IMG/VR virus record: IMGVR_UViG_3300025151_000038
Coordinates: 1 to 60,762 of that record
DNA from: a virus
Length of the DNA: 60,762 nt
Reading direction: 5' to 3' (one strand)
Position 1 is the first letter of the stretch, and every line of letters starts with the position of its first letter. The position numbers were made by a program, and so were the translations under genes. Positions 4,179-60,762 of the stretch are shown here, piece by piece. The notes below the pieces were generated by a model. It made no database searches. It saw only the letters and a program-made list of their open reading frames with translations, and was not told where the DNA came from.

Positions 4179-4228
4179 ATACAGTTTACGTTTGGTTAGA
4201 TGCACAAGGTCGAACCTACAGGCAGGCT

Positions 4229-4284
4229 CTTAGCCTTTTTGGATCTTCTTAGCCTTTTTGGATCTTCTTAGCCTTTTTGGATCT
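4229..4284. repeat. Tandem 19-bp repeat cttagcctttttggatctt, about 2.9 copies
   Basis: Units at 4229, 4248 and 4267, read directly from the sequence. Confidence 0.95.
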
Positions 4285-4394
4285 ACCCCCTCGTATTCGG
4301 CAAGATACCACTCGATAAGACGTGCGGTACTCTCTTCTCTAGCCTTGGCATCAATCCGAGCCTTGGATTTGACATATAATTCCCATGGTAACAT
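4230..4394 (-). CDS. small ORF of 54 aa, below the ORF-track cutoff, with a basic C-terminus encoded by the 19-bp repeats
   Basis: gaaaggagttattgatATG ribosome-binding site. Translation is MLPWELYVKSKARIDAKAREESTARLIEWYLAEYEGVDPKRLRRSKKAKKIQKG. The three 19-bp units are read in three different frames. Confidence 0.4.
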   Translation of the reverse strand: MLPWELYVKSKARIDAKAREESTARLIEWYLAEYEGVDPKRLRRSKKAKKIQKG

Positions 4395-4402
4395 ATCAAT
4401 AA

Positions 4403-4445
4403 CTCCTTTCTATATTTAGGTTATACATTCCACGTTTACTTATCG
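4403..4445. repeat. Copy 1 of an exact 43-bp direct repeat (gene-junction cassette)
   Basis: ctcctttctatatttaggttatacattccacgtttacttatcg is identical to 4662-4704. Confidence 0.95.
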
Positions 4446-4651
4446 GCTTGCTTTGCAGTTGCAATTGCTCTTGAGGCTGTTTCGATGAACCTGTTAAGTT
4501 CTCTGAACTCAGATTCGCTGGAGCATATACTTTCCTCATTAACCATGAGGTGTATATCTACTCTATAAAGTAAGTCATCATCGTTATGGATAACTGCATG
4601 TGCTACTGCTTTTACAATCCCCGTCGTTGATGTGATTTCTTCTATATTCAT
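4436..4651 (-). CDS. hypothetical protein, 71 aa
   Basis: gaaaggaggtgagtaggtATG Shine-Dalgarno site. The last codons (..DK stop) lie inside repeat copy 1. Confidence 0.65.
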   Translation of the reverse strand: MNIEEITSTTGIVKAVAHAVIHNDDDLLYRVDIHLMVNEESICSSESEFRELNRFIETASRAIATAKQADK

Positions 4652-4661
4652 ACCTACTCAC

Positions 4662-4704
4662 CTCCTTTCTATATTTAGGTTATACATTCCACGTTTACTT
4701 ATCG
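4662..4704. repeat. Copy 2 of the exact 43-bp direct repeat
   Basis: Identical to 4403-4445. It again spans the last codons of one ORF, the spacer and the ribosome-binding site of the next ORF. Confidence 0.95.
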
Positions 4705-4916
4705 TTCTCGTTTTTCCCCAGATTGAGGAGGTCGAGTGCTTTCCAAGCCTCAGTGGGCTGGTGCGAGGGCTTATGCTTTGCCTCGTTTACTACCTTGGCA
4801 GTATTACCTGTGAAATCATACACAGGGCTGCCGGCTGTTGTCCCTACTCTGTAGGGGCTGTTGTTGTCTCTACTCATAAGATCAGTTTTGGTTGAGTTGT
4901 TTGGATGCTTCCACAT
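4695..4916 (-). CDS. hypothetical protein, 73 aa
   Basis: ORF ending ..DK stop inside repeat copy 2. Confidence 0.5.
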   Translation of the reverse strand: MWKHPNNSTKTDLMSRDNNSPYRVGTTAGSPVYDFTGNTAKVVNEAKHKPSHQPTEAWKALDLLNLGKNENDK

Positions 4917-5067
4917 CTATGAGAAAGCGACCCTTGCGGTGCTTCTCCGCGCCTTCAGGAGGTCGGCAGCCATTGGTGAATGGCGCTAGCCCACCTGATA
5001 GCTTGCGGGGCTTGTTCCGTTTCCAGCCCTGCTTGATTCGTGCATTAGGCTTGTGATATATGTACAT
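4882..5067 (-). CDS. small basic hypothetical protein, 61 aa from the internal ATG
   Basis: The ORF track gives 4882..5265. The ATG at 5067 has an aaacggaaaggaactATG ribosome-binding site. The longer N-terminal extension runs into low-complexity DNA. Confidence 0.4.
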   Translation of the reverse strand: MYIYHKPNARIKQGWKRNKPRKLSGGLAPFTNGCRPPEGAEKHRKGRFLIDVEASKQLNQN

Positions 5068-5280
5068 AGTTCCTTTCCGTTTAGGTTTACTTTCACCAGA
5101 TACGCCAGCTATCATATTGCTGGCGCATCTGTCGAAAGGCGGGTAGCTACTCATGTAACTACCCGCACTAACGAGTTGGTTTCCGTCCTGCTGCCATGCC
5201 TGGTTGCATTCCATTCCGCATCTATCTTTCGATAGCTGCCTTTTGTGCAATAGGTCATGACCCATGTGTTATGATGCCGG

Positions 5281-5369
5281 TTGCATTTTGCTTGTGCATG
5301 ATGCGTGTGCATGATGCAGGCTGCAGGATGCATTTTGCATGGTGCATGGTGCATGGTGCATGGTGCAGG
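5281..5369. repeat. TGCA(T)-rich low-complexity block with a tandem heptamer (tgcatgg x4 at 5336-5363 plus one partial unit)
   Basis: ttgcattttgc occurs twice, gtgcatgatgc occurs twice, and there are four perfect tgcatgg units. All read directly. Confidence 0.9.
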
Positions 5370-5653
5370 ACGTTCTGCGTTTATTCTTTTCGGATGCGTT
5401 ATCATAGGTCAAGCCTATGCGCCCCCTTGCCTAGTCACTGCTCTGTGACAAACTAGCCCCTTGGCACTAGCCCCCCATTGCACTATACAATGGAATTGCT
5501 AGCCCTAACCACGTCACAAGGGCGTAAGTCTTGCGCGATTTATTGACTGTTTTTTCGGCTATGTCTTAAGACGTTGGAAGACATATTGGTGCCTGAGATA
5601 TTCAGGTTCAGGATATTGGGCAACCCGCTTGCCATATGGCAAGCACTAAAGAT

Positions 5654-5903
5654 ACATCCAAGCCCTGCCGGAGCATTGCTTGGCTGTAGAGCTTTAGCCC
5701 TTGGATTGCATAGGGCTGGGATCATCCATTAAATGCCCTATGGGTAACGGCTTGTGAATAGGGACTTGCCCTGCCGGAGCATTGCAAGCCATTTAAAGCC
5801 CTTTCCGTGCCATCATGTAGGGCTTGCCCTGACAGATCATTGCAAGCCCTGTAATGGGATTTTCGCGACATCCAAGCCCTGACAGATCATTGCTTGGCTG
5901 TAG
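5654..5903. repeat. Four-member family of about 35-nt hairpin units: A1 5654-5689, B1 5758-5792, B2 5818-5851, A2 5868-5903
   Basis: Stems are ccaagc/gcttgg (A units) or (g)cttgc/gcaag(c) (B units). Each encloses a conserved 14-nt loop, cctgccggagcatt or cctgacagatcatt. Flanks are conserved within each type. Confidence 0.8.
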
Positions 5904-5910
5904 TCAATCA

Positions 5911-5980
5911 TTCACAGAATGAAGCCCTACCAGCACAATGGCTGATAGGGCTTGGATTCTGTGAACGCCTAGGCGTTCAC
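5911..5980 (-). terminator. Perfect 20-bp palindrome (5961-5980), a terminator candidate, overlapping the 3' arm of a long imperfect hairpin (5911-5965)
   Basis: gtgaacgcctaggcgttcac lies 10 nt after the stop of ORF 5991..6374. ttcacagaat (5911-5920) pairs with attctgtgaa (5956-5965), which shares gtgaa with the palindrome. There is no clear U-tract on the minus strand. Confidence 0.4.
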
Positions 5981-5990
5981 CCTTTAGTTT

Positions 5991-6374
5991 TTAGCTTTGA
6001 AGCTTGTTGAGCGTGTCAAGCTTCTCGACCATAAGCGGAATTGCAAGCTTGCCCGCCTGTTCAACTTTCACAGCATCGACGTATACAGCCTTGGCTTTCT
6101 TGCCATCCTCAAGGGAGCAAGTCCATTCAGATACAGGCTTGAATACCTTTTTACCGTGTGCCTCACGCCCACCGCTAGCGGTGAATGTCTCAGGCAATTT
6201 CTCAAGGTCTGTGATTTCAAGACGCTTGCACTCTTTCCATGCATTCATGGTTTTAGTTCTGCTGAAATCAGCAAACACCCTTTCAAGGTTGTCTACAATC
6301 AACGTTTTAGTTTCAACTGCATTTGCAGTTCCATCATTTTTGGCAGGTGTTTCCACCTTTTCTTTATTTGCCAT
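5991..6374 (-). CDS. hypothetical protein, first leftward gene, 127 aa from the ATG at 6374
   Basis: The ORF track gives 5991..6389. The predicted -10 box lies at 6381-6386, which favours the MANKEKVE start at 6374. Confidence 0.6.
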   Translation of the reverse strand: MANKEKVETPAKNDGTANAVETKTLIVDNLERVFADFSRTKTMNAWKECKRLEITDLEKLPETFTASGGREAHGKKVFKPVSEWTCSLEDGKKAKAVYVDAVKVEQAGKLAIPLMVEKLDTLNKLQS

Positions 6375-6380
6375 GCAATC

Positions 6381-6408
6381 ATTATACACCTTTTATTAAC
6401 TTAATCAA
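6381..6408 (-). promoter_or_regulatory. Sigma70-like promoter, leftward: TTGATT-16 nt-TATAAT
   Basis: The minus strand reads ttgatt aagttaataaaaggtg tataat gattgc ATG. The A of the ATG is 7 nt after the -10 box. Confidence 0.55.
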
Positions 6409-6595
6409 TACCTTGACCTTATTACAGGTAACAGAAAAGCAATCTATTTTCCTTTATTCTAAAGGCAACCTTGCGCCATTTACCATTGTTAATTAGTCAT
6501 AAGTCATTGACAATGAAGCAGTTAGCACGCCACCGGTCTCCGACCAATTTTTATATTAGCGGGTCAGCTATATATATGTGGGCGTGTGAAAAAAT

Positions 6596-6624
6596 TTGAC
6601 AAGACCTTTTTCAAGTTATTTACT
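6596..6624 (+). promoter_or_regulatory. Sigma70-like promoter, rightward: TTGACA-17 nt-TTTACT
   Basis: Consensus -35 box with a 4/6 match to the -10 consensus. The ATG of ORF 6630..6857 begins 6 nt after the -10 box. Confidence 0.35.
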
Positions 6625-6629
6625 CAATT

Positions 6630-6857
6630 ATGGATCCAGAAAAGAAGAAAAAATACTACCAAGAGAATAGAGAACAGCGGTTGGCATACCAAAAAGAATA
6701 CTACCGGAAAAACAAAAACCGGATCAAGCGGAAGAAGGAATTGAAGCAGGCAAATGACCCTTCCTGGATAGATAAACAAAGGGAATACAACAGGCAGTAT
6801 TACATCAAAAATAGGGAGCGGATTCAGCAGCAACGAGCCGAAAAAGCCGGCTTGTGA
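6630..6857 (+). CDS. small highly basic protein with three YYxxN(R/K) repeats, 75 aa
   Basis: KKYYQENREQ / EYYRKNKNR / QYYIKNRER repeats. It is the first rightward ORF. Confidence 0.6.
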   Translation: MDPEKKKKYYQENREQRLAYQKEYYRKNKNRIKRKKELKQANDPSWIDKQREYNRQYYIKNRERIQQQRAEKAGL

Positions 6858-6863
6858 GCGGGT

Positions 6864-6957
6864 AACCGCTCAGAGATTTGCAAAACCGCTCAGAGATTTG
6901 CAAAACCGCTCAGATTTTCAAAAACCGCTCAGAGATTGCAAAAACCGCTCAGAGATT
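6864..6957 (+). repeat. Iteron-like array 1: five direct copies of AACCGCTCAGA(G/T)AT(T) at 19-20-bp phasing
   Basis: Copies start at 6864, 6884, 6904, 6923 and 6943. Confidence 0.95.
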
Positions 6958-7158
6958 CACTTTTCGGGGCTAAATCGGCTCAATTCGCGTCTAACCACCA
7001 TAATTATCATTATCGTTCCGGTGGGCCAAGTTGAAAACTTTCTCAGAGAGAAAGTATAATTGTTTCTGTGATGGAATAAAATAAGTTTCCTCTATAAGAA
7101 AGTTTTATATAGGGGGGTAGCGTCAAATTCTTTTCATTTAATGCTCGCTTTTTGCTCA

Positions 7159-7233
7159 AACCGCTCAGATATTACAAAACCGCTCAGAGATTTACGAAAA
7201 CCGCTCAGAGATTATGGAAACCGCTCAGATATT
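7159..7233 (+). repeat. Iteron-like array 2: four more direct copies of the same motif
   Basis: Copies start at 7159, 7178, 7199 and 7219. The last two cover the ATG and first codons of ORF 7214..7681. Confidence 0.95.
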
Positions 7234-7681
7234 TAAATCCGAAAAACGCATCCCCATCCCCGATACCTATGGCTACGAGATAGACGAATATGGCTTTGTC
7301 TACCGCAACGGCAAACGTCTCAAGCTCCAACGCAAGGCCGGCAAGTGGTTTGCACAGGTGTACACTGTAGAAGGCAAACGTGTATCCTTCGACTCTGAAC
7401 GGTTAGCCCGTAACCTGTTTGGTGAGGACGAATACATTCTCCGGCGTAAGGATATAGAGCAGAATTATGATGTGCGAACTGTACCCGAATTCCCGCGCTA
7501 TGTAGTCACCGCCTATGGGGCTGTGTATTGCATTGACCCACCGAAACGAGGCAGGAATGCTGGCTCATGCTACCTGGTTAGTGAGTCCATCTCAAGGGAC
7601 AAGCCTTATGTGACCTTATACAAGGCTGATGGCACATGTCGCAAGAAGCAGGTTAAGTGGGTTGTAGACTCTGCGTGGTAA
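7214..7681 (+). CDS. NUMOD4-like DNA-binding protein with no nuclease motif seen, 155 aa
   Basis: Two IPxxxGYxI/VPEFPRYVVTAYGAVY segments resemble the NUMOD4 motif of homing-endonuclease DNA-binding modules. Confidence 0.5.
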   Translation: METAQIFKSEKRIPIPDTYGYEIDEYGFVYRNGKRLKLQRKAGKWFAQVYTVEGKRVSFDSERLARNLFGEDEYILRRKDIEQNYDVRTVPEFPRYVVTAYGAVYCIDPPKRGRNAGSCYLVSESISRDKPYVTLYKADGTCRKKQVKWVVDSAW

Positions 7682-7728
7682 GTATTAGCCCTTGAAGCAT
7701 GGGAAAAAAGACTTAAATTTTTGGTTAC

Positions 7729-9951
7729 ATGCCAACTGATAAATTGGAAATAGAAGCTCTTGATGGTTTGGGATCTCTTGACGAGAAGGGCAAGCCTCTT
7801 GTGAGTCGCCTGAAGGATGTGAAGAGTGCGCTTGCGGTCTTTAATAATTTGAGGAAGGCGGATGAGCAGTCTTCCGTTAATCGCGCACGGGTTGATGCGA
7901 TGTTTGATGGTGCTAGTCCTTATGATCAGGCTGGCTTGAACCGCAGTGGTCAGGGGTTGAAGACGAACTTGAATTTTGGGGAGGCGCAACGGCTGCTGGA
8001 TATATCGATGTCTGCTTACGTTGACTTATATTCTTCTCTTGAGAAGTTGGTCGAGGTGAAAGGGACTGAGGGGGAGGCATCAGAGATTGGACCGCAGGAG
8101 GATATTGTTTCAGAGGAGATCACGCACATGTTGCGTAGTTGGCCTGAGTTCCATTCCAATTACCTGCGCCTTTGCAATACCTTCATTAAGCATGGGGTTA
8201 GTGTCTCTTATTTTGATACCCCTGATGACTGGAAGTTCAGGGTGGGTGGTTTTGCGGATATATTGATCCCTAGACAGTCACCTGCTTCAGAAGACATGAT
8301 CGATGTTGCAGTGGGCCGGCGCAATTACCACCTGCATGAGTTGTTTGCCTTCATTAAGAATGAGAAGGCTGCTGCCCGTGTTGGTTGGGATGTGGATGAA
8401 GTGAAGCGCGTTCTTATGAAGAACGCGAACACAGAGGGTAGGGGGAACAGGGTAAACTATTCTGATTGGGAGTCGTTGCAGCAGGAGATGAAGAACAACG
8501 ACATCTACACAGGTCACCAGAACCCGACTGTGGCTGTCCTGCATTTCTGGGTGCGGGAGATGGATGGTTCAATTTCCCATTACATTTGTGCAGAGGATTC
8601 CCCGAAGGAATTCCTTTATAAGAAAATTTCCCGCTATGAAAAACCCGAACAGGCTTATGTGTTGTTTGCCTATGGGGTGGGTTCCAATGGCACTTACCAT
8701 TCGGTCAGGGGATTAGGGCATAGAATTTTTAACCACATCCAGACGAGCAACCGGCTCCGCTGTCAGATGATTGATGGAGCCATGTTGGGTTCCTCTGTGA
8801 TGATCCAGCCAGAGAGCCAGCGTTCTTTGGACGAGTTGGGCTTTACTTATTATGGGGCATATGCAGTGCTTTCCCCAGGGGTGAACATTGTTGAGAAGGC
8901 AGTCCCGAATTTAGGCACAGCCGTCCAGCCGGCGTTGCAGGATATATCGCAACAGCTTGCGATGAACACGGACACAGTCAGCACTTACGGGTCGCAACAG
9001 AGTTCCCCTTATAGGAACCAGATGCAGGTTGTGGCTGACATGGATATATCTACGCGCCTGTCTGGTGCGAGCTTGAACCTTTTCTATTCAAGCTGGAACC
9101 GCCTGATGCGTGAAGTGGTCCGGCGTATTGTGCAGAACAAGCGTGGGGATGCCCTCACGAAAGAGTTTTATAGAAGGTGCGAGACACGGGGTGTCAGTGA
9201 GTCCTTCATCAGGTCACTGGATATAACCAGGACCAGGGCAGTCCGTTCCATTGGGAATGGGTCATACGCCAATCGACTCGTGGCCTTGCGTGAGTTGCAG
9301 GGTATCTCTGGCTCATTCGATGAGGTAGGACGCCGTAACCTCACGCGGGATATTGTGTCAACTCGCGTAGGCCACGATCTTGCTGACCGGTATGCCCCGC
9401 AGCAGGAAGAACCCCGCCCGACTATTGATAATAAGATTGCTTTCTTTGAGAACCAGCAGTTGACACAGGGATCCCCCGTACCGGTGGTCTCCAGCGAGTT
9501 GCATGGCGCACATTTACAGGCGCATGTCCCCGCGATGATGCAGATCATTGAGCAACTTAACGCTGGAGCAGCCGACCCCATTCAGGCGTTACCCGCGCTA
9601 CAGGCATTCTACCAGCACATTGGTGAGACTGCCCAGTTCCTTGCCGGCGACCCAAGCCAAGCACCTGTTGTTGGGCAAGCCAACCAAGCACTACAATTTG
9701 CGGAAGAGATGATAAATAATACATCCAAGCAAGTGCAGAAGATACAACGCGAAGAGGCGCAGGCGCAGGCGCAGGGCGCACCTGATGACGCGGGTATGGC
9801 TATGAATGCCAAGATGCAGGAACACCAGATGAAGATGCAGATGGCACAGCAGAAGGCAGAGCTTGACATGAGCCTGAAACAAGCCAAGTTCGATCAGGAA
9901 CAGGCGATGCGCGATGCCAAGAATGCCTTGGAGATGCGGCAGACACCTTAA
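7729..9951 (+). CDS. portal protein (candidate), 740 aa
   Basis: Based on size and position: it is the first large gene of the virion block and is followed by an acidic coiled-coil scaffold and the capsid gene. It has a Q/A/M-rich C-terminal tail. Confidence 0.7.
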   Translation: MPTDKLEIEALDGLGSLDEKGKPLVSRLKDVKSALAVFNNLRKADEQSSVNRARVDAMFDGASPYDQAGLNRSGQGLKTNLNFGEAQRLLDISMSAYVDLYSSLEKLVEVKGTEGEASEIGPQEDIVSEEITHMLRSWPEFHSNYLRLCNTFIKHGVSVSYFDTPDDWKFRVGGFADILIPRQSPASEDMIDVAVGRRNYHLHELFAFIKNEKAAARVGWDVDEVKRVLMKNANTEGRGNRVNYSDWESLQQEMKNNDIYTGHQNPTVAVLHFWVREMDGSISHYICAEDSPKEFLYKKISRYEKPEQAYVLFAYGVGSNGTYHSVRGLGHRIFNHIQTSNRLRCQMIDGAMLGSSVMIQPESQRSLDELGFTYYGAYAVLSPGVNIVEKAVPNLGTAVQPALQDISQQLAMNTDTVSTYGSQQSSPYRNQMQVVADMDISTRLSGASLNLFYSSWNRLMREVVRRIVQNKRGDALTKEFYRRCETRGVSESFIRSLDITRTRAVRSIGNGSYANRLVALRELQGISGSFDEVGRRNLTRDIVSTRVGHDLADRYAPQQEEPRPTIDNKIAFFENQQLTQGSPVPVVSSELHGAHLQAHVPAMMQIIEQLNAGAADPIQALPALQAFYQHIGETAQFLAGDPSQAPVVGQANQALQFAEEMINNTSKQVQKIQREEAQAQAQGAPDDAGMAMNAKMQEHQMKMQMAQQKAELDMSLKQAKFDQEQAMRDAKNALEMRQTP

Positions 9952-21489: not shown

Positions 21490-22389
21490 ATGGCTCCTGG
21501 ATTAGGATTAGGGAATAGCGTAACTGCTGACCCGGCAAGCACACTGTTTGCTAGCACACCGTTGCTATTGGATTCTTACCCGAATGCTCACAGGGCTTAT
21601 TCGGTTCGTAAGCTACGGACTGATTATACGGGGTATGCCATGAAGGTTAGGGAGAGTGGCAATGATTATACTGCTGATGTCAGTTTCGATGATGATGGGT
21701 TTGTGTCTGCATCGTCACCTGTAGCCAACTTGTCGGGGGGATCAGGAGCCACACTTGGTGCTTTTATAGGCGGCTCAAACGACGGTTTCGTAACCACCTG
21801 GTACGACCAATCAGGAGAGGGATCAAATGCAACACAAGGCACACCAGGAAACCAACCTAAAATTTATTCGGGCGGTTCTTTAATTACAGAAGGCTCAAAG
21901 GCAGCTTTGTTGTTCGATGGCGATTTATTAAAGGTTGACGAAGCGGGGTTGGCTTTGGGGTCTATAACTACCTTTGCCATTATAAGCCACACCAACACCG
22001 CAATGGGTGTCCCTTGGAATTTAAGTTATGCCTCTGGTAATTATTATTTACACTTTAAAACTAGCGTAGAGGATCAGTATTGGTATGATACGGGTGATTC
22101 AGCCTCCCACTCCTCAAGCACATCTCAAAAATTGTTTTCTTACACGGGTGGGAGCGGGACAGACAAGCAGATACTGTATGCAAACGGTGTAGCATCATCA
22201 GAAAAAGGAGATTCTACAGACACTTCTTCCTCCTTGACTGATAACGCCAATAATGGAATAGGCGGGGTTTGGGATATTTCACTATTTTATGCTGGTGAGT
22301 TCCAAGAGTTCATCGTATACGATTCCGATCAGTCGTCTAATGTATCTAACATTGAGTCAAACATTAACACTGCTTTTAGCATATACTAA
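21490..22389 (+). CDS. tail-fibre/receptor-binding candidate with a LamG (concanavalin-like) look, 299 aa
   Basis: ..FVTTWYDQSGEGSNATQGTPGNQPKI..G....ALLFDGD.. resembles the WYDQSG..Q....QP signature of LamG-type fibre proteins in marine podophages. This is from memory. Confidence 0.45.
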   Translation: MAPGLGLGNSVTADPASTLFASTPLLLDSYPNAHRAYSVRKLRTDYTGYAMKVRESGNDYTADVSFDDDGFVSASSPVANLSGGSGATLGAFIGGSNDGFVTTWYDQSGEGSNATQGTPGNQPKIYSGGSLITEGSKAALLFDGDLLKVDEAGLALGSITTFAIISHTNTAMGVPWNLSYASGNYYLHFKTSVEDQYWYDTGDSASHSSSTSQKLFSYTGGSGTDKQILYANGVASSEKGDSTDTSSSLTDNANNGIGGVWDISLFYAGEFQEFIVYDSDQSSNVSNIESNINTAFSIY

Positions 22390-25666: not shown

Positions 25667-25925
25667 TGGTGTGGATAAACACTGGACCATTATCACAGTC
25701 TTCGGCAAAGGTAATAGTATCCCCCCAAAATTGATCCTCTGCCGCTGAGTCAGATAACCCTTGGTTTGTGAGTGTGTTTAGGCAAAGCTCAATGCTATAA
25801 ATAGCTCTAGGTGGTTCCAAGGATACTCCTACAAAAGCCCTATCAAATCCTTCGACTAAAAGGACTTCTTCAGCTTCCTTGCCAAGTTTTTCCTCAAGGA
25901 ATTCAACTACTTCTTCAGATGTCAT
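25659..25925 (-). CDS. hypothetical protein, 88 aa
   Basis: ORF whose start overlaps the stop of the primase-helicase gene. Confidence 0.55.
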   Translation of the reverse strand: MTSEEVVEFLEEKLGKEAEEVLLVEGFDRAFVGVSLEPPRAIYSIELCLNTLTNQGLSDSAAEDQFWGDTITFAEDCDNGPVFIHTII

Positions 25926-28102
25926 AAGGCTACTTTTTCTTTCACGGGCGCTTGAACCATGGGTTCTTTGTCTATATCAAACTTTGAGTCTAAATTAATT
26001 TCCCATATTTTACCACCCCCAAATCCTATAGACTTTATAGGGCGTGCCTTTTTATTATTCTTGCTGGTCTCCTCCAGTGTCAGAAAACCTCTTCTAACGA
26101 ATTCCATATTGCCGGACACTCCAATGTTCCGACCCCCATTGAATTCAAGGATACTCCCCTGAAACTCAGTCAGGGTTCCCCGCCACACGGGGTTAGTAAA
26201 ATACTCCCGCGCTCTCTTAACAAAGAATTCTACCAGTTCAGCTACTGTAGACCTGCTTGAGTTATCATAGGCGGCAGAGGCAATTGTCTTATCGATATAG
26301 CCATATACCCCAAAACGAGAATCTCCCTTCACTTCTTTCGGAACTTCCCAATCCAATAGCCAACGAGCGAAGTGGGGTAACTCATTCTCTATAGTCTGTT
26401 CAAGCTCATCATTAGGGGGAAATTTCGAGGTCGCTGTGTCACTCATACGCAACGCCATTAGCTTATCCCTATTTGATGAATCAAGGCTGGGAATCACGCT
26501 AAGACTATTAGCATCCATGTTTAGCGACATAACCACACGCCCTGTCCACGGGACACTGATTGCATCTACATATTTTGCATGATACTCCATCCTTGGGTTA
26601 GCTACACATTTCTTAATAAGCTCTGTTGCTCTTCTCTGATCCTGAAAAGAAGCTGCCGAAGTTGTGTCATCTACAACCCAGGCAGCAACCCGTGCGAGAT
26701 CCTTATTGAAGTTTGTCTGACCTGATAAGTAGTCAGAAGCATCTGAAAACCCGCCAACCAAAGCAGATATAACTTTGTTAGACAATAATGATTTACCCAC
26801 CCCAGTAGGGCCAACTAAAAGAAGGGCATGCCCCTGCTTACGTTTACGCTCCAGAACAGCCGTGTAGAATCGCTTCAACCAAGCAAAAAAGTAAAGCACG
26901 GTTCCTTGCTCCACACTGTCTGCAAACAGTTGGTGTAGCCACTTATGGAGGAAAGGCCATTTAGATTCATCTCCATCCTCTGCTGGCTCTACAGGATCAA
27001 TATTAGCTGTATTTAGTATTCGGTGACTGTTGTAGGTGACCACTCTGTCAGGACTAAAAACAACAGGAGCTATCTCATCTATCCTATTCTCGTTGGCTAT
27101 TGTAACTAAAGCCGTTTCTAGCTCTGTCAGGTTTTGACCTCTCCTTGGGCGGGGTGAGAACCCTGCCTGACGTAACTCAAGGCAGAGTTGGTCTTTAGGT
27201 ATCTGTTGAGCCGCACCATGTAATAACTTGTAGTGCATTTTCCCGTTGAACCAGTAGTTGTCCAATAGGCTCCCCATTTTCTTTACCTCATAATCTTCGA
27301 CGAATTTTGCCCCGAATAGTTCTCTCCATGTAATAAACCCCTTTCCGGCTCGGATACTATAACAGACCATGCCTTCTTCTGAGACCTGACACCCTACTCG
27401 CTCAACGAAAGGATCTACCCAAAACAAGGGTCCCCGCGCCCCTACAGTGAATTCGCCCTCCCATCGATTTGGAAAGCGTTCCCGCATTTCTTTTTCAACC
27501 ACATCAATTGGTATTGATGACTGAGCCGATTGAGGTGGGTTAGAGTCAGCAGCTTTAAATAAGGCGGTCCTGTAAATCTCTTTAGGTAAGGGAGCACCCA
27601 TTTTAACCCAGTCCTCTCCAATAGCGAAGACCTGACTGGCTCTGTAGGAAGCCTCATCAAAACCCGCAAAGATACGCTCTACCTTTAATTGACTCCCCAG
27701 CCGCCGGATAAATGTATCGTATAACTCAGATGATATTGGAAGTTTTTCCTCAAACTCCCACACTAGGCGTATATACCCTGAGTAAGTCCTAGACCTCCAA
27801 GTTGGTAATAACTCCTTACATTGTGTATGAATTAGCTTGTCAACAGACTCCCAGTCCAGAGGGGCATCATAGTCAATAACAATACCATGAATGGCGTTTA
27901 TGGGGTTGCTTTCGGATATGCGTAGGTTGGGGTTGTCGCCCTCGCACATTGTATAAAATACATATTTTGTGTCCTTTTCACCGCACCACTCTTTGAAATG
28001 TGTCTTGGATTCAAGTGAGGGTTTGTCCTTAACCAGTTTAGATATATCATCAGTCTTGTTCGTTTTAGTTTCTCTGAGGTTTTTAATGTATCTATATTTC
28101 AT
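25922..28102 (-). CDS. primase-helicase fusion (AEP-type primase N-terminus plus SF3/D5-like helicase), 726 aa
   Basis: IVIDYD acidic motif at the N-terminus. Walker A is LLLVGPTGVGKS and Walker B-like is AAWVVDD at the C-terminus. Confidence 0.8.
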   Translation of the reverse strand: MKYRYIKNLRETKTNKTDDISKLVKDKPSLESKTHFKEWCGEKDTKYVFYTMCEGDNPNLRISESNPINAIHGIVIDYDAPLDWESVDKLIHTQCKELLPTWRSRTYSGYIRLVWEFEEKLPISSELYDTFIRRLGSQLKVERIFAGFDEASYRASQVFAIGEDWVKMGAPLPKEIYRTALFKAADSNPPQSAQSSIPIDVVEKEMRERFPNRWEGEFTVGARGPLFWVDPFVERVGCQVSEEGMVCYSIRAGKGFITWRELFGAKFVEDYEVKKMGSLLDNYWFNGKMHYKLLHGAAQQIPKDQLCLELRQAGFSPRPRRGQNLTELETALVTIANENRIDEIAPVVFSPDRVVTYNSHRILNTANIDPVEPAEDGDESKWPFLHKWLHQLFADSVEQGTVLYFFAWLKRFYTAVLERKRKQGHALLLVGPTGVGKSLLSNKVISALVGGFSDASDYLSGQTNFNKDLARVAAWVVDDTTSAASFQDQRRATELIKKCVANPRMEYHAKYVDAISVPWTGRVVMSLNMDANSLSVIPSLDSSNRDKLMALRMSDTATSKFPPNDELEQTIENELPHFARWLLDWEVPKEVKGDSRFGVYGYIDKTIASAAYDNSSRSTVAELVEFFVKRAREYFTNPVWRGTLTEFQGSILEFNGGRNIGVSGNMEFVRRGFLTLEETSKNNKKARPIKSIGFGGGKIWEINLDSKFDIDKEPMVQAPVKEKVAL

Positions 28103-34839: not shown

Positions 34840-35385
34840 TTAGTTTTCGTCTACTGACTCAGACTCAACATCAATAACCTTGTTGACTTTTTTGTCCCCC
34901 ACTTTCTTTGTGTTATTGAGTATTGAAATATCAATCTGCATACTTCCTGAGCCATCACCATTCCTGGCATTGAGTCCCAGGTTACGGCGAATTAATTGAT
35001 CTAGTTCTGATAATTCTTTGACTGTGCGAGGACCTCTTATGTTTTTAATGCTATCTCTAAGAAGTTTAATACTAGAGGATGCTACATAGTTCTGATATTG
35101 ATCAGCGGGGGAAGCCTGAGCATCAGCGATTTCTTCAATGGTCTTATCTTCTTTTATGCGTTCATCATGATGAGCAATACTTTCATCCAGACGTATTTCA
35201 ATGTCTGTAGGCTCATTAGGTTCATGTGGAGATTTTTTCGCCTTAACTCCCTCATCTCGAAACCATCTACGCAAAGTAGATTGGTGAATATTCAATTCCC
35301 GTGAGATACTAACGAGCTTATAGTCCTGATTGTAGAGTTCTATTGCTCGCTTTAACAGTTCTGCTTTTTTAGTAATTTTAGCCAA
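34840..35385 (-). CDS. HTH DNA-binding protein, possibly the small terminase subunit or a regulator, 181 aa
   Basis: N-terminal helix-turn-helix ISRELNIHQSTLRRWFRDEG. It is divergent from terL and adjacent to it. Confidence 0.45.
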   Translation of the reverse strand: MAKITKKAELLKRAIELYNQDYKLVSISRELNIHQSTLRRWFRDEGVKAKKSPHEPNEPTDIEIRLDESIAHHDERIKEDKTIEEIADAQASPADQYQNYVASSSIKLLRDSIKNIRGPRTVKELSELDQLIRRNLGLNARNGDGSGSMQIDISILNNTKKVGDKKVNKVIDVESESVDEN

Positions 35386-35428
35386 AGCACTTAATATATA
35401 CTATTCTTTTGCTACCATTTCAAGTTCT

Positions 35429-37207
35429 ATGCCTCGCGTTCTACATGTCTATGAGCCTCGTATTGATTCAGATACGAAAAAAATGGATGTAGGAGGGATA
35501 TTAATTCCTCCTACAAACACACTAACTGCACTACTCTACGGCTTTGCACATCACGAAGCGCACCGCGCCCGTGAGTATTATTTTTGGAGGTTATGTGATG
35601 AGTTGTGGAATAATGAAGAACTCCCTGAGAAAATGATGGTGCGCCACCCCTGGGCAGAAGACATGATTAAATCTGTAATCCGCAACAAGTATGTTGCTAT
35701 CGGGGGTGCTGCTTCATCTGGTAAAAGTCACACGATGGCTGCATGGGGTATTCTGAATTGGTTGGCAGCCCCACGCGATACTCTGGTTCTACTTACTTCG
35801 ACAACTTTAAGAGAGGCTCGCAAACGGATATGGGGTTCCGTTATATCTTTGTTGTCTGTCATTGAAGGCGCACCCCTTAAAGTTCGTGATTCTATTGGAA
35901 ATGTCGCATACATCAATGAACAAGGGAATCTGATCGAAAGAGCAGGTTTATCGCTGATCGCCGCAGAGAAAAGCAAGACACGGGAAGCGGTTGGTAAGTT
36001 TATTGGTATTAAGCAAAAAAGAGTAATTCTTATTGGAGATGAGCTAGCAGAGTTGAGTGAGGCAATCCTCCAAGCAGGTTTATCAAACCTCTCCAAAAAC
36101 CCCTCCTTCCAGCTTATCGGGATGTCTAACCCAAACTCACGCTTCGACGCTTTCGGGGTTTGGTCAGAGCCGAAGGATGGCTGGGATTCAGTAGATACGA
36201 ACACGGATGACAAGTGGCGCACGAAATGGGGAGGGCAGTATATCCGCTTTGATGCGGAAAGAAGTCCGAACGTGGTTGCCGGAGAGAATATCTTCCCTTG
36301 GCTCCCTACTACCGAAAAATTGGCAGAAGATAGAGCGTTGCTTGGTCAGGAGTCGAGGGGGTATATGCGGATGGTAAGGGCTGTGTTTTTTGACTCAGAC
36401 GAAACGGAGGGAATCTACAACGAAGCAGAACTTACGCGCTCCGGTGCAATGAAACCCGTTGAGTGGCAAGGCAACCCTACCCCAATAGCCGGACTTGACC
36501 CTGCTTTTACAAATGGAGGTGACCGTACAATATTATACACGGGTTTTGTTGGATATGATATCAATGGACAATATGTGTGCGAGCTTGGAGAAGCTGTCCA
36601 CCTTAATGACGATGCCACCAACAAGTCGGTCCCCCGCACTTACCAGATAGTCCGGCAGGTGAAGCAGGAGTGCCAGAAGAGAAGAATTCAACCGCAGGAT
36701 TTGGCGGTGGACTCGACGGGCGCTGGCGCTCCTTTCTGTGACGTTCTTGCCGGCGAGTGGAGCGATCAGATTTTAAGGGTCTCATTTGGTGGAAAAGCCT
36801 CAGACCGAAAAGTTTCTGCCAACAGTTCAATGATTGGTCAGGAGCTTTATATGAACAGGGTGAGCGAGCTTTGGTTTGTAGGCAAGGAATTTTGTAGAAC
36901 GAAGCAGCTATTTGGGATCAGCACAGATTTAGCTCAAGAAATAACGGGCAGGAATTATGATATGGTAAAAGGGTCAACGCTTCGGATGAAGATTGAATCT
37001 AAACCAGAATACAAAGCACGGTTTGGTCGTAGTCCTGATTTGGCGGACGCAGCCTTCTTGTGCTTGGACTTGGCGCGGCAGCGACATGGACTCGTTGCGG
37101 TAGATCCTCCCGATGATTCCACGCAGTCTGGTAAGATGCCACGCCAAAGAAGAACCATAAAACAACTCGCACAAACACTTACAATTGATAACTTGAGTGG
37201 CTCTTGA
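35429..37207 (+). CDS. terL: terminase large subunit, 592 aa
   Basis: Walker A is AIGGAASSGKSH and Walker B is VILIGDE. Nuclease-domain Asp motifs are GLDPAFTNGGDR and AVDSTGAG. Confidence 0.9.
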   Translation: MPRVLHVYEPRIDSDTKKMDVGGILIPPTNTLTALLYGFAHHEAHRAREYYFWRLCDELWNNEELPEKMMVRHPWAEDMIKSVIRNKYVAIGGAASSGKSHTMAAWGILNWLAAPRDTLVLLTSTTLREARKRIWGSVISLLSVIEGAPLKVRDSIGNVAYINEQGNLIERAGLSLIAAEKSKTREAVGKFIGIKQKRVILIGDELAELSEAILQAGLSNLSKNPSFQLIGMSNPNSRFDAFGVWSEPKDGWDSVDTNTDDKWRTKWGGQYIRFDAERSPNVVAGENIFPWLPTTEKLAEDRALLGQESRGYMRMVRAVFFDSDETEGIYNEAELTRSGAMKPVEWQGNPTPIAGLDPAFTNGGDRTILYTGFVGYDINGQYVCELGEAVHLNDDATNKSVPRTYQIVRQVKQECQKRRIQPQDLAVDSTGAGAPFCDVLAGEWSDQILRVSFGGKASDRKVSANSSMIGQELYMNRVSELWFVGKEFCRTKQLFGISTDLAQEITGRNYDMVKGSTLRMKIESKPEYKARFGRSPDLADAAFLCLDLARQRHGLVAVDPPDDSTQSGKMPRQRRTIKQLAQTLTIDNLSGS

Positions 37208-37234
37208 CCCCCTACTTAAAAACTCCCCATGTGA

Positions 37235-37275
37235 GGTTACTTAATTTATTCCGTAACAGAATAAACTAAGTAGCC
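37235..37275 (+). terminator. AT-rich 17-bp hairpin after terL (terminator or RNA-processing candidate)
   Basis: ggttacttaatttattc / gaataaactaagtagcc with one wobble, one mismatch and a 7-nt loop, followed by TTCCTT. Confidence 0.4.
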
Positions 37276-37400
37276 TTCCTTAGAAAAGTTTTATATGCCC
37301 CCCCGAAATGCTCACGGTCCCTTGTTGCTAAAGTCAATAAAAAGATTAACTTTATACACACACTTCTTTAGAAAATTCTTGATTTAAACTATTTTCCATT

Positions 37401-38807
37401 ATGGCTTCTCCTAAGTATGAAACTCTCTCGCCCAAAGCTAAAGAATTTTTAGCTAAAAAATATGCTGAAAGGCTTTTTTCAGCTTTGAACCCCCCGATGT
37501 TTAGGACTGAGATGCAGGATATAGACCTTCCTTTTGGGCTAGGTACTAAAGAAGAAGATGTAAAAACTATTTTAAAGCAAATACAACAGTCTGGGGGTTC
37601 TGATCTCGTTAACTTAATTTCAGATGCTAAAAGACCAGATGGCGAAAAATTCTTCGATAAGGGTTTAAGAGAAGCCTTCGATAGTGATTTTGACGGAGAT
37701 GAACTAAAAAATGTATTAAATGCTGCTGGGTATCCAGATATTGATTTTTGGAAGCAAACCGCACAAGAAAACTACGCTGCCCGACAGGGTTTAGATCCAA
37801 ATAAATCTAATTATCAGGCTTTTGGTCCTGAGTTTGTTGAGGGCAGGGGTAAACATAAGGAATTACAAAAAGGCTGGTCTGGTTTAGGAGTAGGAGCTAG
37901 TGGATTTTCAGGTTATATAGCTCCAGGAGGAAAAAAAGCACCCTCATTAATTCCAACACAACAAGAGTTGTTAAAGAATCAGCCAGAGTTTAAAAATATA
38001 TTTACAACTGCGCCAGCTACAACTGCGCCAGCTACAACTGCGCCAGCTACAACTGCGCCAGCTACACCTCCACCAGGGACTACAATAAAGCAGACACCTA
38101 CTGGCCTTGTTTCTCAGGCTCCTGTCAAATTACCGACCACACCTGCGCCCACACCTGCGCCCACACCTGCGCCAGCTACACCTGCGCCAACTACAACTGC
38201 GCCTACAACCACAACCACTGCACGAACAGCCCCACCTATACAATACACCCCATCAAAACCCGAAGGTTTAACTGAGGAACAGAAAAAGAGATATGAGGAG
38301 ACAGTAACTAAAGGAGGAGCTTCAAAAGACCCCCAACAGGAAGCAGCGCGGATAGCAGCCATCAAGAAAAACATGCCACCTACTATTAGCTCTGCCCCTA
38401 CTGAGACTACCGTAGAACCCACAACCAGCACACCCCCACCAGAAAAATCCCAACAGGAGCAAATCCGTGAGAGACTGGCCACAAGAGGCCCTGATCCGGC
38501 ACAACAATTATTGAATGTGATTTCATCTGCGCGGGCTACCCGTGAAGCTATGCTAGATAAAGAAAGAGCCGAAGGTAGGGCGTGGATTGATCGTTTGGTT
38601 AAGAACCCTGAAAATTGGAAAATGGGGGCGCGTGATCCCCGCGATGAGAGAACAACCCGTGAGGAGCGTTATGGCAAACCCAGACCAACTCAGTCGGATG
38701 AAGATCGCAGACGTAAAAATGGGCGAGGTGGGCGTAAAGCTCCCCGCCCCCGCTACGGAGCAGGGGGAACTAATAACCCACCCGTCACAGAGGAGTCACG
38801 CTACTAA
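37401..38807 (+). CDS. Pro/Thr/Ala-linker-rich protein, internal virion/ejection candidate, 468 aa
   Basis: (TTAPA)4 and (PTPA)n linkers with a basic C-terminus. It is the first of three genes after terL. Confidence 0.6.
   Translation: MASPKYETLSPKAKEFLAKKYAERLFSALNPPMFRTEMQDIDLPFGLGTKEEDVKTILKQIQQSGGSDLVNLISDAKRPDGEKFFDKGLREAFDSDFDGDELKNVLNAAGYPDIDFWKQTAQENYAARQGLDPNKSNYQAFGPEFVEGRGKHKELQKGWSGLGVGASGFSGYIAPGGKKAPSLIPTQQELLKNQPEFKNIFTTAPATTAPATTAPATTAPATPPPGTTIKQTPTGLVSQAPVKLPTTPAPTPAPTPAPATPAPTTTAPTTTTTARTAPPIQYTPSKPEGLTEEQKKRYEETVTKGGASKDPQQEAARIAAIKKNMPPTISSAPTETTVEPTTSTPPPEKSQQEQIRERLATRGPDPAQQLLNVISSARATREAMLDKERAEGRAWIDRLVKNPENWKMGARDPRDERTTREERYGKPRPTQSDEDRRRKNGRGGRKAPRPRYGAGGTNNPPVTEESRY
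38003..38062 (+). repeat. Perfect 15-bp tandem repeat acaactgcgccagct x4, coding for (TTAPA)4
   Basis: Units at 38003, 38018, 38033 and 38048. More degenerate acacctgcgcc units follow at about 38136-38215. Confidence 0.95.
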
Positions 38808-39997: not shown

Positions 39998-53373
<13,376 letters not shown>

Positions 53374-53377
<4 letters not shown>

Positions 53378-55484: not shown

Positions 55485-55676
55485 CTATTTTGGTTTGCCC
55501 GTACCCTTCTTCTGGACACGGATGACTATTTCTTTTTCCGTAGTTTCTGTTCCATCCTGCTTTGCGCACTGATCAGGGCGCATGTCGAAATGCTTAGTGT
55601 CAACCACACGCTTCCTAGCAGGATCCACAGTAAGATATATTCTATAATCTGGTAGAGGTTCACGATTCATATTCAT
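55485..55676 (-). CDS. hypothetical protein, 63 aa
   Basis: ORF directly upstream of the methyltransferase. Confidence 0.5.
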   Translation of the reverse strand: MNMNREPLPDYRIYLTVDPARKRVVDTKHFDMRPDQCAKQDGTETTEKEIVIRVQKKGTGKPK

Positions 55677-56013
55677 CTAGCTGTTCTTTAACTCGGAGTA
55701 TCTCTTGCATTGCTTGATGAACTCCTTCGTCAGAACTCTTTTCTTTTACTTTGTTCTTTGTTTTCCAACTGGAGACTGCCCCGCGCCCAAACATTTGTCC
55801 GGCTTCTTCGTGGGACATCCCCGACTCATGTGCAATATACATACCCAGATGAACCCAAGGGGTCAGAGCATGATGCCTTTGTGTTAACAACTCCTCTTTA
55901 CTATATCCAGATACCTGAGATACAGCCGGTAGGAGGTTATTCATTGTGTTTTTCTTTATCAGTTTCATTTTCGTTTTTGTTTTCTTGTAATAGCACCATT
56001 GAACGTGGTGCAA
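55660..56013 (-). CDS. DnaA-domain-IV-like HTH protein, up to 117 aa (the likely start is the internal ATG at 55968 or 55944)
   Basis: ..HLGMYIAHESGMSHEEAGQMFGRGAVSSW.. resembles the DnaA C-terminal DNA-binding helix-turn-helix (..AMYL.RE.T..S...IG..FG.RDH.TV). Confidence 0.5.
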   Translation of the reverse strand: MHHVQWCYYKKTKTKMKLIKKNTMNNLLPAVSQVSGYSKEELLTQRHHALTPWVHLGMYIAHESGMSHEEAGQMFGRGAVSSWKTKNKVKEKSSDEGVHQAMQEILRVKEQLDEYES

Positions 56014-58109: not shown

Positions 58110-58304
58110 CTATTCTACTTTGAGTTGGCTAACAAACTTGCCAATGGTTTCCGAAAGTTTGTCCAGCTTGGCATCAACATCACGACCGTCTACCTCTTCG
58201 ATAAAGAAGTGAACTTCCATCTCACCACTCTGCACAGCTCGGGCAATTATGTCCCACTCCGCAGCCGTTAGACTGATCGAGTATTTTTTATTTGGTTTAT
58301 TCAT
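58110..58304 (-). CDS. hypothetical protein, 64 aa
   Basis: aaagaaagaaaacaaaaATG leader. Confidence 0.6.
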   Translation of the reverse strand: MNKPNKKYSISLTAAEWDIIARAVQSGEMEVHFFIEEVDGRDVDAKLDKLSETIGKFVSQLKVE

Positions 58305-60138: not shown

Positions 60139-60684
60139 TTAAGCAGGGATTGATCCCTTTCTTCTATCTTCTGCGCACTTACGCATGACTTTGGTGAACT
60201 CTTCTTTGCTGAGTCCGTTCAACATGATGAAGTGGTCTTCCCACCATTGGCACTTCTTCACCATGGCGAGATACTCTGGTGAGGGTTTACCGCTGTTCCT
60301 TAGTTTGACTTGGTAGACCTCACCACCATCGACATACTCGACCTTGGAAGCACGGGCTGCCTTCTGATGTTCCTTCCAGTGCAAGTCATCCTGCACCAGT
60401 TCATCGATGATATAGTCCAGGCATCGCAGGTAGTGTTCCAAAGACTCATCATTGCGAGCCTCCTCTTCTGCTTGCTTGAGCCTAGCTGAAGCATCAGCAT
60501 CAACCTCCCATTTGTTGTCTACTACTTTGCCATTAGCCCAGTAGTCAGTGCATCCTCCGCGCCCATCATTCTTTGCGCCCCCTGTCTTCTTGCCGTCGAT
60601 CCATAGGTCAGCGGTGAAGGCATTGGTTTCTTCACTCATGTTTGTGGCGTGAACCACGTTCTTTAGTTCTACTTTTGTTTTCAT
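60139..60684 (-). CDS. hypothetical protein, 181 aa
   Basis: ORF whose 5' leader is the (AAAACC)11 microsatellite plus aaagaaaacaaaATG. Confidence 0.7.
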   Translation of the reverse strand: MKTKVELKNVVHATNMSEETNAFTADLWIDGKKTGGAKNDGRGGCTDYWANGKVVDNKWEVDADASARLKQAEEEARNDESLEHYLRCLDYIIDELVQDDLHWKEHQKAARASKVEYVDGGEVYQVKLRNSGKPSPEYLAMVKKCQWWEDHFIMLNGLSKEEFTKVMRKCAEDRRKGSIPA

Positions 60685-60762
60685 TTTGTTTTCTTTGGTT
60701 TTGGTTTTGGTTTTGGTTTTGGTTTTGGTTTTGGTTTTGGTTTTGGTTTTGGTTTTGGTTTT

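Follow-up and report, generated by a model that had tools for sequence, protein, structure and literature searches.

Two blocks of direct repeats around a conserved hairpin in an uncultured marine phage: a possible two-part operator

Arrays of short protein-binding sites at control regions are a well-known kind of element in phages and plasmids. Iteron arrays, such as those of P1 oriR/incA, F, RK2 and lambda ori, are direct repeats in one orientation that lie beside AT-rich DNA. The repressor of phage Mu binds arrays of asymmetric sites in O1 and O2, and P1 C1 binds asymmetric 17-bp operators. In the parC/ParR system of plasmid R1, two sets of five 11-bp direct repeats flank the parMR promoter. 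A further case is I-TevI, where the DNA-binding domain of a homing endonuclease is reused to autorepress its own gene. Here we describe a locus that shares traits with each of these systems. It lies in the IMG/VR record IMGVR_UViG_3300025151_000038, which comes from an uncultured marine phage and was analysed from position 1 to 60,762; this whole stretch of 60,762 nucleotides is called the window in the following. From the end of a gene for a 75-amino-acid (aa) protein (p75) to the start of a gene for a 155-aa protein (p155), we find nine copies of one 15-bp site, arranged in a block of five and a block of four on either side of a conserved non-coding core.

We tentatively interpret the nine repeats, at a little below an even chance, as an operator in two parts to which a phage DNA-binding protein, possibly p155 itself, would bind. 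This interpretation is based mainly on the following properties of the locus: the core of the repeats is under selection, the motif is confined to one locus, the left block tolerates inversion, the right-hand sites are tied to the start of p155, and p155 has the modelled fold of a DNA-binding protein. What is new is a real and conserved instance of such an element in an unstudied phage family. The arrays mark a control point in a widespread family of marine phages of which no member has been cultured and hardly any gene is annotated.

The repeats and the core that they flank

When scanning the whole 60.7-kb window, we found nine exact copies of the 11-mer AACCGCTCAGA, all on the + strand, and no further exact copy; the base composition predicts about 0.013 chance copies per strand. 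When up to two mismatches were allowed, the observed copy count was reached by 0 of 100 shuffles. Tandem Repeats Finder also calls both arrays, with a period of 20 and 4.8 and 3.8 copies, respectively. The starts of successive copies are 20, 20, 19 and 20 bp apart in the left block and 19, 21 and 20 bp apart in the right block, with 216 bp between the last left and the first right copy. This confirms an initial annotation of the window, made from the sequence alone, which had noticed nine repeats (five plus four) in the same orientation with a period of 19–21 bp. The repeated unit given there was too short: anchored on the 11-mer, the conserved part extends to (A)AACCGCTCAGA(G/T)ATT, followed by 4–5 variable bases, which gives a constrained core of 15 bp, AACCGCTCAGAKATT. 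The features of the locus are as follows.

6630..6857, + strand: p75 gene, encoding 75 aa with an isoelectric point (pI) of 10.1; first gene of a rightward block, with the left array between its stop codon and the hairpin
6855..6872, no strand assigned: inverted pair TGAGCGG-gtaa-CCGCTCA with 7-bp arms, made of one inverted core copy and unit 1; overlaps the p75 stop codon
6864..6957, + strand: left array, five units of AACCGCTCAGAKATT at 6864, 6884, 6904, 6923 and 6943
6958..7029, + strand: spacer A, a conserved non-coding segment of 72 bp from the left array to the hairpin
7031..7060, + strand: predicted sigma-70-type promoter, TTGAAA-18-TATAAT, in the 5' arm of the hairpin; 11 of 12 consensus positions match, and the sigma-70 consensus may not be that of the host
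7034..7106, + strand: long hairpin of about 75 nt, an inverted repeat with arms 7034–7066 and 7074–7106 and the base GAAAACTTT...AAAGTTTT
7105..7157, + strand: conserved leader, TTATATAGGGGGGTAGCGTCAAATTCTTTTCATTTAATGCTCGC; candidate promoter or 5' untranslated region of the p155 operon
7159..7233, + strand: right array, four units at 7159, 7178, 7199 and 7219
7214..7681, + strand: p155 gene, encoding a basic protein of 155 aa with a pI of 9.35
7729..9951, + strand: 740-aa gene, next downstream of p155; its product has no match in Pfam, PHROGs, NCBIfam, PDB or the phage database

To estimate the constraint on the repeats, we compared 46 units that came from the window and from five relatives very close to it. 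Among them, the 15-bp core shows no or almost no variation and the 4–5 nt spacers are essentially random; substitutions are confined to the spacers and the core is without change. An invariant core between random spacers suggests a selected recognition site and not neutral tandem duplication. Furthermore, 10 of the 13 CCGCTCA heptamers in the genome of the window fall in 6855–7227. The arrays thus present what is looked for in an operator array, i.e. clustered copies of one selected site at a transcription control point.

The right array is interlocked with the start of p155. Its third unit abuts the ATG at 7214, and its fourth unit makes up codons 2–7, with the core CCGCTCA in codons 3–5. As RNA, the right array is unusually unstructured (z = +2.3), such that 199 of 200 shuffles fold at least as well. 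At the other end, the inverted repeat around the p75 stop codon, which the initial annotation had pointed out, does exist at 6855–6872 but is not conserved: it is present in the sister contig L088 and absent from the sister clade L080, L081 and L083–L087, where p75 ends differently.

The spacer between the arrays (6958–7158) has 201 bp and 37% GC compared to 46% in the genome. Only 7030–7140 is truly AT-rich (30% GC), and this part holds a covarying hairpin and is probably not a plain unwinding element. Similarly, the palindrome with 8-bp arms that had been noted there is found at 7037–7055 but is merely a portion of the 5' arm of the long hairpin. Using nhmmer and alignment, we distinguished three parts with conserved layout in the region between the arrays, namely the base GAAAACTTT...AAAGTTTT, an upper stem that varies and, as a conserved tail, TTATATAGGGGG-N-CAAGTTCTTTTCTGTGCTA.

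The hairpin folds significantly as RNA (z = -3.6), and spacer A, which can still be recognized in L001, has no significant RNA fold (z = -0.08). In an alignment of 10 sequences, 88% of the cells in the hairpin pair, which is reached by 0 of 500 shuffles and compares to 45–58% in slid controls; 31 cells have changed on both sides of the pair. The hairpin is thus a stem-loop kept by compensatory changes, as is asked of an intrinsic terminator. Read on the + strand, it contains 24 G-U pairs versus 10 A-C mismatches, which favours an RNA that is transcribed rightward. As a generic minimum-free-energy scan after p75 was too unspecific, we replaced it by a search anchored on the elements of the hairpin base. 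These elements are found 61–66 nt apart in 16 of 58 loci that carry p75 upstream of the 740-aa gene (57 relatives and the window). In seven of these 16 loci the hairpin begins about at the p75 stop codon, and five of the seven have a T6–T8 tract alongside an A-tract. Judging by these sequence features, the hairpin looks like a terminator, apparently that of p75. The hairpin of the window has T4 only and begins 176 nt past the p75 stop codon, which suggests that the left array and the conserved 72-bp segment were inserted between p75 and its terminator. A search of 5500–8000 against Rfam gave nothing credible, the only match being a sub-threshold miRNA model on the palindrome 5913–5963.

A comparison of the window to L080 shows that the non-coding core between the arrays is, by sequence identity, at least as constrained as the flanking genes, since identity is 93–98% in the core and 80–92% in the genes. 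The values for the individual features are:

p75 gene: 80%
left array: 87%
72-bp segment 6958–7029: 93%
hairpin: 95%
leader: 98%
right array: 95%
p155 gene: 92%
740-aa gene: 91%

Within the leader, TATATAGGGGG and CAAGTTCTTTTCTGTGCTA are still conserved in relatives whose p155 is 47% identical, and the word TTATATAGGGGG occurs once in the genome of the window. With respect to the predicted promoter, TGAAAA is conserved in the relatives and TAnnnT often follows 17–19 nt downstream, as seen by eye in the alignments.

Two further observations concern the hairpin and the leader. A second copy of the long hairpin is found at 37206–37296 (AAAACTTTTCT...GGGGAGTTTTT, loop TTCTGTTACGGAA), between the large terminase gene, whose stop codon precedes it by about 10 nt, and gene 37401. 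It is flanked on either side by a G/C homopolymer run and TATA-like words, and CCGCTCA repeats are lacking beside it. In addition, TATATA followed by TTCTTTT within 25 nt on the + strand occurs only upstream of p155 (7105–7135) and upstream of the large terminase (35390–35428). Both regions share TCAA(G/A)TTCT, and the version upstream of the terminase is conserved in relatives. The spacing of TATATA and TCAAGTTCT is unequal at the two places (11 versus 19 nt). These words may represent a shared late-promoter or leader word.

Conservation and turnover among relatives

To follow the arrays across genomes, we used the 740-aa protein as anchor and fetched 79 related loci from IMG/VR; sister contigs (L080–L088) were fetched through homologues of p75 and p155. 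The homologue search with p75 gave two very close hits only. The order of p75, intergenic region, p155 and 740-aa gene is kept in most of the 79 loci.

Conservation of repeat number and phase had been proposed as a check in the initial annotation, and it holds for the closest relatives only. Among the sister contigs, five plus four units are found in L080, L081 and L084 and four plus four in L083 and L087, with a spacing of 19–20 bp. The distance from the last left unit to the first right unit is 216 bp in every case, and the right array has four units in every close relative in which it is complete. Further out, the number, the phase and the orientation of the left sites vary. In intermediate relatives (47–80% identity in p155), CCGC(T/G)CA is still concentrated in the same interval, with sites that differ in number, spacing (12–38 bp) and orientation. 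For instance, L001 has two plus two sites, and the last left unit of the window is orthologous to a single L001 site. In L003 and L050, a pair of inverted sites on the left is combined with two or three direct ones on the right; L073 carries four inverted sites with a 12-bp period, and in L005 sites of both orientations are mixed. The motif itself also varies among lineages, with the variants CCGCTCAGAGATT, CCGCGCA and ATGAGCG. Over all 58 loci with p75, CCGCTCA is 19-fold enriched in the 450 nt after p75 and is present there in 22.

Despite this turnover, each of the six lineages examined has the sites nearest to the p155 start codon in + orientation, no more than about 25 nt from the ATG. 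The motif is also seen in the N-terminus of p155, where it is read as TAQ/TAH (ACC GCT CAx; ACCGCTCA) in about half of 33 homologues, down to about 45% identity; this peptide lies in the first 15 residues, which are otherwise unconserved. The sequence that is shared by inverted and direct copies ends at the 14–15 nt motif. That inversion is tolerated in the left block suggests a site in duplex DNA rather than in RNA, and the combination of changing left sites with start-proximal sites in fixed + orientation argues for orientation-tolerant DNA sites that are tied to p155.

The arrays are absent from the distant relatives that we inspected (L031, L035, L064, L058 and L019), in which the hairpin directly follows p75. 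When the exact 15-mer was searched across IMG/VR, only single chance hits were found beyond three relatives that were already known, and thus no second genomic context. The presence of sites could be set against the primase-helicase in only four contigs that overlap the loci anchored on the 740-aa protein, which are too few to compare.

Some of the relatives carry other repeats near this locus. In L058, the region from -725 to -500 relative to the 740-aa gene is a tandem duplication of the p75 3' end together with the terminator hairpin, which indicates that this junction is prone to duplication. In 27 of 71 related loci (L001–L079), a tandem array of short period (mostly 7 bp or a multiple) with a lineage-specific unit lies 0.85–4.5 kb upstream of the 740-aa gene; examples are 65 copies of GTGACAGC in L038 and 17 copies of ACAGGAG in L033. 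Heptamer arrays adjoin the terminal repeats of T7, and the upstream arrays of the L038 and L033 type resemble those.

Candidate binders and genome setting

An AlphaFold2 model of p155 (predicted local distance difference test, pLDDT, of 88) contains two modules of three beta strands and a helix (beta3-alpha). With Foldseek against viral models, this structure matches the NUMOD4 modules of HNH and homing endonucleases, with E-values down to 6e-9, and a nuclease domain is lacking. The sequence has weak hits to PHROGs annotated as HNH endonuclease. We found no fold match in the PDB at E <= 0.001, a profile search of the PDB sequences gave none below E 0.4, and a literature search on NUMOD4 returned nothing relevant. 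Thus, p155 models as a nuclease-free tandem of DNA-binding modules of the homing-endonuclease NUMOD4 type. Modules of this type bind long asymmetric sites as monomers. On the basis of this model and of its adjacency to the arrays, p155 is the best candidate for a binder of the repeats.

Three products had been proposed as binders, those of 7214–7681, 6630–6857 and 55660–56013. Only the first, p155, has gained from our analysis through its modelled DNA-binding fold; the products of 55660–56013 and 6630–6857 match no family with known function. Other potential DNA-binding proteins in the genome are a helix-turn-helix (HTH) protein at 34840–35385, which lies beside the large terminase gene and looks like the small terminase subunit, and the 64-aa product of 58110–58304, which resembles ribbon-helix-helix (RHH) proteins with a sub-threshold RHH match.

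The window is a circular assembly in which bases 1–99 equal bases 60664–60762, so that the genome has about 60,663 bp. The leftward genes extend from 6389 over the assembly join as far as about 53.4 kb; among their products are a DUF932 protein, a C5 methylase and a GP88-like protein. They are followed by a first rightward block from 6630 to 25.7 kb, which p75 opens, by a leftward replication block (25.9–35.4 kb) with a D5/P4-like primase-helicase, a family A DNA polymerase, a PD-(D/E)XK exonuclease and an SNF2 helicase, and by a second rightward block (35.4–53.4 kb) with the large terminase gene and an open reading frame (ORF) of 4459 aa. Two genes outside the locus are needed below:

25922–28102: gene for a 726-aa primase-helicase that weakly matches the P4-family primase model (E 4e-4, which is below the cutoff)
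35429–37207: large terminase gene

In the first rightward block, the virion protein at 21490–22389 is the sole functionally named family match besides the weak HNH-endonuclease hits of p155. The label of an early/late boundary, which the locus had received, is plausible but, with this one named gene, an inference. The 75-aa, 155-aa, 740-aa, 4459-aa and 55660–56013 products are without a hit in Pfam and NCBIfam. PHROGs was run on these products except for the giant 4459-aa protein, and for p75 it returned families of unknown function only. Judged by size and position only, the 740-aa product is possibly the portal; searches of the PDB sequences with the large terminase and the 740-aa protein were empty. 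In the cultured-phage collection, there is no DNA match for 6400–7800 and no protein match for the 740-aa gene.

The genome contains additional repeats. Left of the divergent promoter region, 4228–6000 is rich in repeats and has only short and doubtful ORF calls. It includes a perfect 3x19-bp tandem (4228–4284), perfect 43-bp direct repeats (4403–4445 and 4662–4704), GTGCATG x10.7 (5294–5367), a 36-nt repeat in three copies (5654, 5760 and 5868) and palindromes at 5819–5850 and 5870–5957. In L080, the matching region comprises about 1.4 kb without a called gene. Judging by its sequence, 4228–6000 is an alternative candidate for the origin or the genome ends. A perfect (TTTGGT)x11.5 microsatellite is located exactly at the circular assembly join (31–99 and 60694–60762). 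Perfect and near-perfect tandem repeats of 12 and 15 nt at 38003–38207, in ORF 37401–38807, result in repeated peptides in the protein, and the single 4459-aa ORF (39998–53377), which takes up 22% of the genome, contains short in-frame tandem repeats (e.g. 48194–48239 and 48994–49049).

Competing explanations and known systems

If the repeats are a two-part operator, one sequence-specific protein encoded by the phage would recognize the asymmetric 15-bp site. Its sites would form blocks upstream and downstream of the conserved core, which consists of the terminator-like hairpin of p75, the predicted promoter and the p155 leader. When bound to both blocks, the protein would set, by repression or activation, the transcription that enters p155 and the structural genes behind it, either by a downstream roadblock over the p155 start, by looping out the core of about 200 bp, or by both. 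If p155 is the binder, the position of its start codon between two sites would make this an autoregulatory circuit. In the lineage of the window, an ancestral set of about one plus two sites may have been enlarged to five plus four by tandem duplication of the 20-bp unit. A more specific version, which we regard as doubtful, is that a homing-endonuclease scaffold of two NUMOD4 modules has lost its nuclease and was domesticated as a core gene that is an autoregulated switch acting on both array blocks. A domesticated NUMOD4 switch would be a type of phage gene switch that has not been described before.

Several points weigh against a two-part operator. The identity of the binder is suggested by adjacency and the modelled fold only, and the predicted promoter is a consensus match only, where the promoter type of the host may differ. 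The motif is found at a single locus, and there is no site upstream of the large terminase (35.4 kb), where one would be expected for a general regulator of late genes. The presence of sites follows the identity of p155 in an untidy manner, as L008 (56%) has none and L005 (47%) has seven. Finally, the strict phasing of about 20 bp in one orientation that we see in the window is exactly how origin iterons look.

This last point leads to the replication origin, in which a phage initiator, e.g. the P4-family primase-helicase, would bind the repeats as iterons and the strands would melt in the AT-rich region of the hairpin. In the window and in its closest relatives, 15-bp cores, a period of 19–21 bp and one orientation are indeed combined with an adjacent stretch of 30% GC, so that there are at least three direct repeats of about 17–22 bp at a spacing of about two helical turns; this layout is not kept in L003, L050 and L073, where blocks are inverted or the period is 12 bp. 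The element is unique in the genome, as expected of a cis-acting site, and the replication module has no other iteron-like repeats. It also lies near the point of divergent transcription and near a local minimum of the cumulative GC skew, but the skew follows the coding strand and has its global minimum at about 35 kb, and the repeat-rich region at 4.2–6.0 kb is an equally good candidate. The alpha protein of P4 binds short repeats of both orientations in two separate clusters (ori and crr). However, the weakly P4-like primase-helicase is the only initiator-like protein, and it is encoded, as are the other replication genes, 19 kb from the arrays; no Rep_3- or lambda-O-type initiator gene is nearby, and searches of Pfam, PHROGs and NCBIfam with p75 and p155 gave no Rep or initiator family. 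We also found no DnaA box (TTATCCACA, at most one mismatch) in 4585–8391, which carries little weight as the DnaA consensus may not be that of the host. The initial annotation had considered origin and operator equally valid. The anatomy of the window is iteron-like, but the comparative evidence favours the operator: judging from the sequences, the arrays are more likely a gene switch than an origin, because the spacer is a conserved, covarying hairpin with a + strand RNA bias and the look of a terminator in distant relatives, because phase, number and left orientation vary among the genomes with sites and the arrays are missing from the distant relatives inspected, and because no Rep/O-type initiator or DnaA box is adjacent and the start-proximal sites are always + oriented. 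We consider an origin unlikely, although it retains appreciable weight.

The remaining explanations receive less weight. If the locus were a packaging site (pac), the terminase would cut between two clusters of binding sites, as in pacL/pacC/pacR of SPP1 or the 4+3 hexamers of P1. The two-part layout with a highly conserved centre resembles this, the element is unique and heads a block with a virion protein, and the right cluster enters the 5' coding region of the small basic gene next to it, similar to pacR and gene 1 of SPP1. But the large terminase and the small-terminase-like HTH protein are encoded 28 kb away and not beside the arrays, p155 has no small-terminase features, the ends of related contigs are not piled up at this locus, and the distant relatives inspected have no arrays, which makes a pac site quite unlikely. 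We give a similarly small probability to an element that acts at the level of RNA, either as a translational operator that brackets the p155 AUG or as a platform in the 3' untranslated region for an N-like antiterminator, the small and very basic p75, that acts on the hairpin. In its favour, the start-proximal sites, which bracket the AUG, are sense-oriented throughout, the right array forms unusually little structure as RNA, and the left array would be transcribed, being located between the p75 stop codon and the terminator-like hairpin. On the other hand, the inverted left sites in L003, L050 and L073 would give an RNA with the complement of the motif and not the motif, the end of the shared sequence at the 14–15 nt motif fits better to a site in duplex DNA than to RNA–RNA pairing, and no Rfam family matches. 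Lastly, the repeats could be a functionless minisatellite, i.e. a 20-bp unit amplified by replication slippage whose extra copies have no selected role. The copy number of four or five among near-identical relatives, the abundance of short tandem arrays in this genome and its relatives, and the two plus two sites with which L001 manages would fit, whereas the 46 units changed in their spacers and never in the 15-bp core, both arrays were amplified independently on either side of the core, and the motif is conserved at this position in 22 of 58 loci. We thus regard a minisatellite as very improbable.

Four other candidates were rejected. The spacing of the units is unlike the sigma-70 and the Bacteroidetes -33/-7 promoter patterns, no integrase that would go with attP arm-type sites was found among the ORFs scanned against Pfam (part of the ORF set), spacers of only 4–5 nt are not those of a CRISPR-like array, and a site for a host factor does not agree with a motif that changes between lineages of the phage family.

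If the two-part operator is true, the locus provides a testable cis element, a candidate regulator, a module of terminator plus leader, and a nuclease-free homing-endonuclease DNA-binding protein that works as a regulator. If it is an origin, it would be the first origin for this phage family. In either case, the element is a variation on well-known themes, operators and iterons, and not a new principle.

Comparing the locus to the described systems, we find partial agreement with each. In the pac sites of SPP1 (pacL-pacC-pacR) and P1 (4+3 hexamers), clusters also lie on either side of a conserved centre and the right cluster enters the 5' coding region of the adjacent gene, whereas here the terminase genes are 28 kb off and the adjacent protein lacks small-terminase features. 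The parC site of R1 shares the two blocks of about five direct repeats, which flank a core with a promoter (predicted here) upstream of the gene of the presumed binder, and hence an autoregulatory layout. It differs by contiguous 11-mers instead of spaced 20-bp units, and the genome described here has the appearance of a lytic phage genome that encodes its own DNA polymerase; furthermore, neither p155 nor the 740-aa protein has a ParM- or ParA-type match in Pfam, PHROGs or NCBIfam, as would be expected for a partition centromere. Iterons agree in the core of about 15–19 bp with a variable spacer, the period of about two helical turns, the single orientation and the adjoining AT-rich DNA, and in P1 and F the arrays are also placed on both sides of a central element. 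In contrast to iterons, no Rep/O-type initiator gene or DnaA box accompanies the repeats here, the AT-rich part is taken up by a covarying hairpin that looks like a terminator, relatives differ in orientation and spacing, and distant relatives that were inspected have no arrays. Mu O1/O2 and the P1 C1 operators resemble the locus in having several asymmetric sites of 11–17 bp in two clusters around an early/late control region, with variable orientation of the sites and possible looping between the clusters; unlike there, the candidate binder here has a NUMOD4 fold and not a winged helix or HTH, and the sites are found at one locus only. I-TevI, in turn, has a DNA-binding module of the homing-endonuclease type whose target lies at the 5' end of the gene encoding it, as is proposed here for p155. 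Compared to I-TevI, p155 is without a nuclease domain, is encoded by a syntenic core gene that is not mobile, and would face nine sites in arrays instead of one operator.

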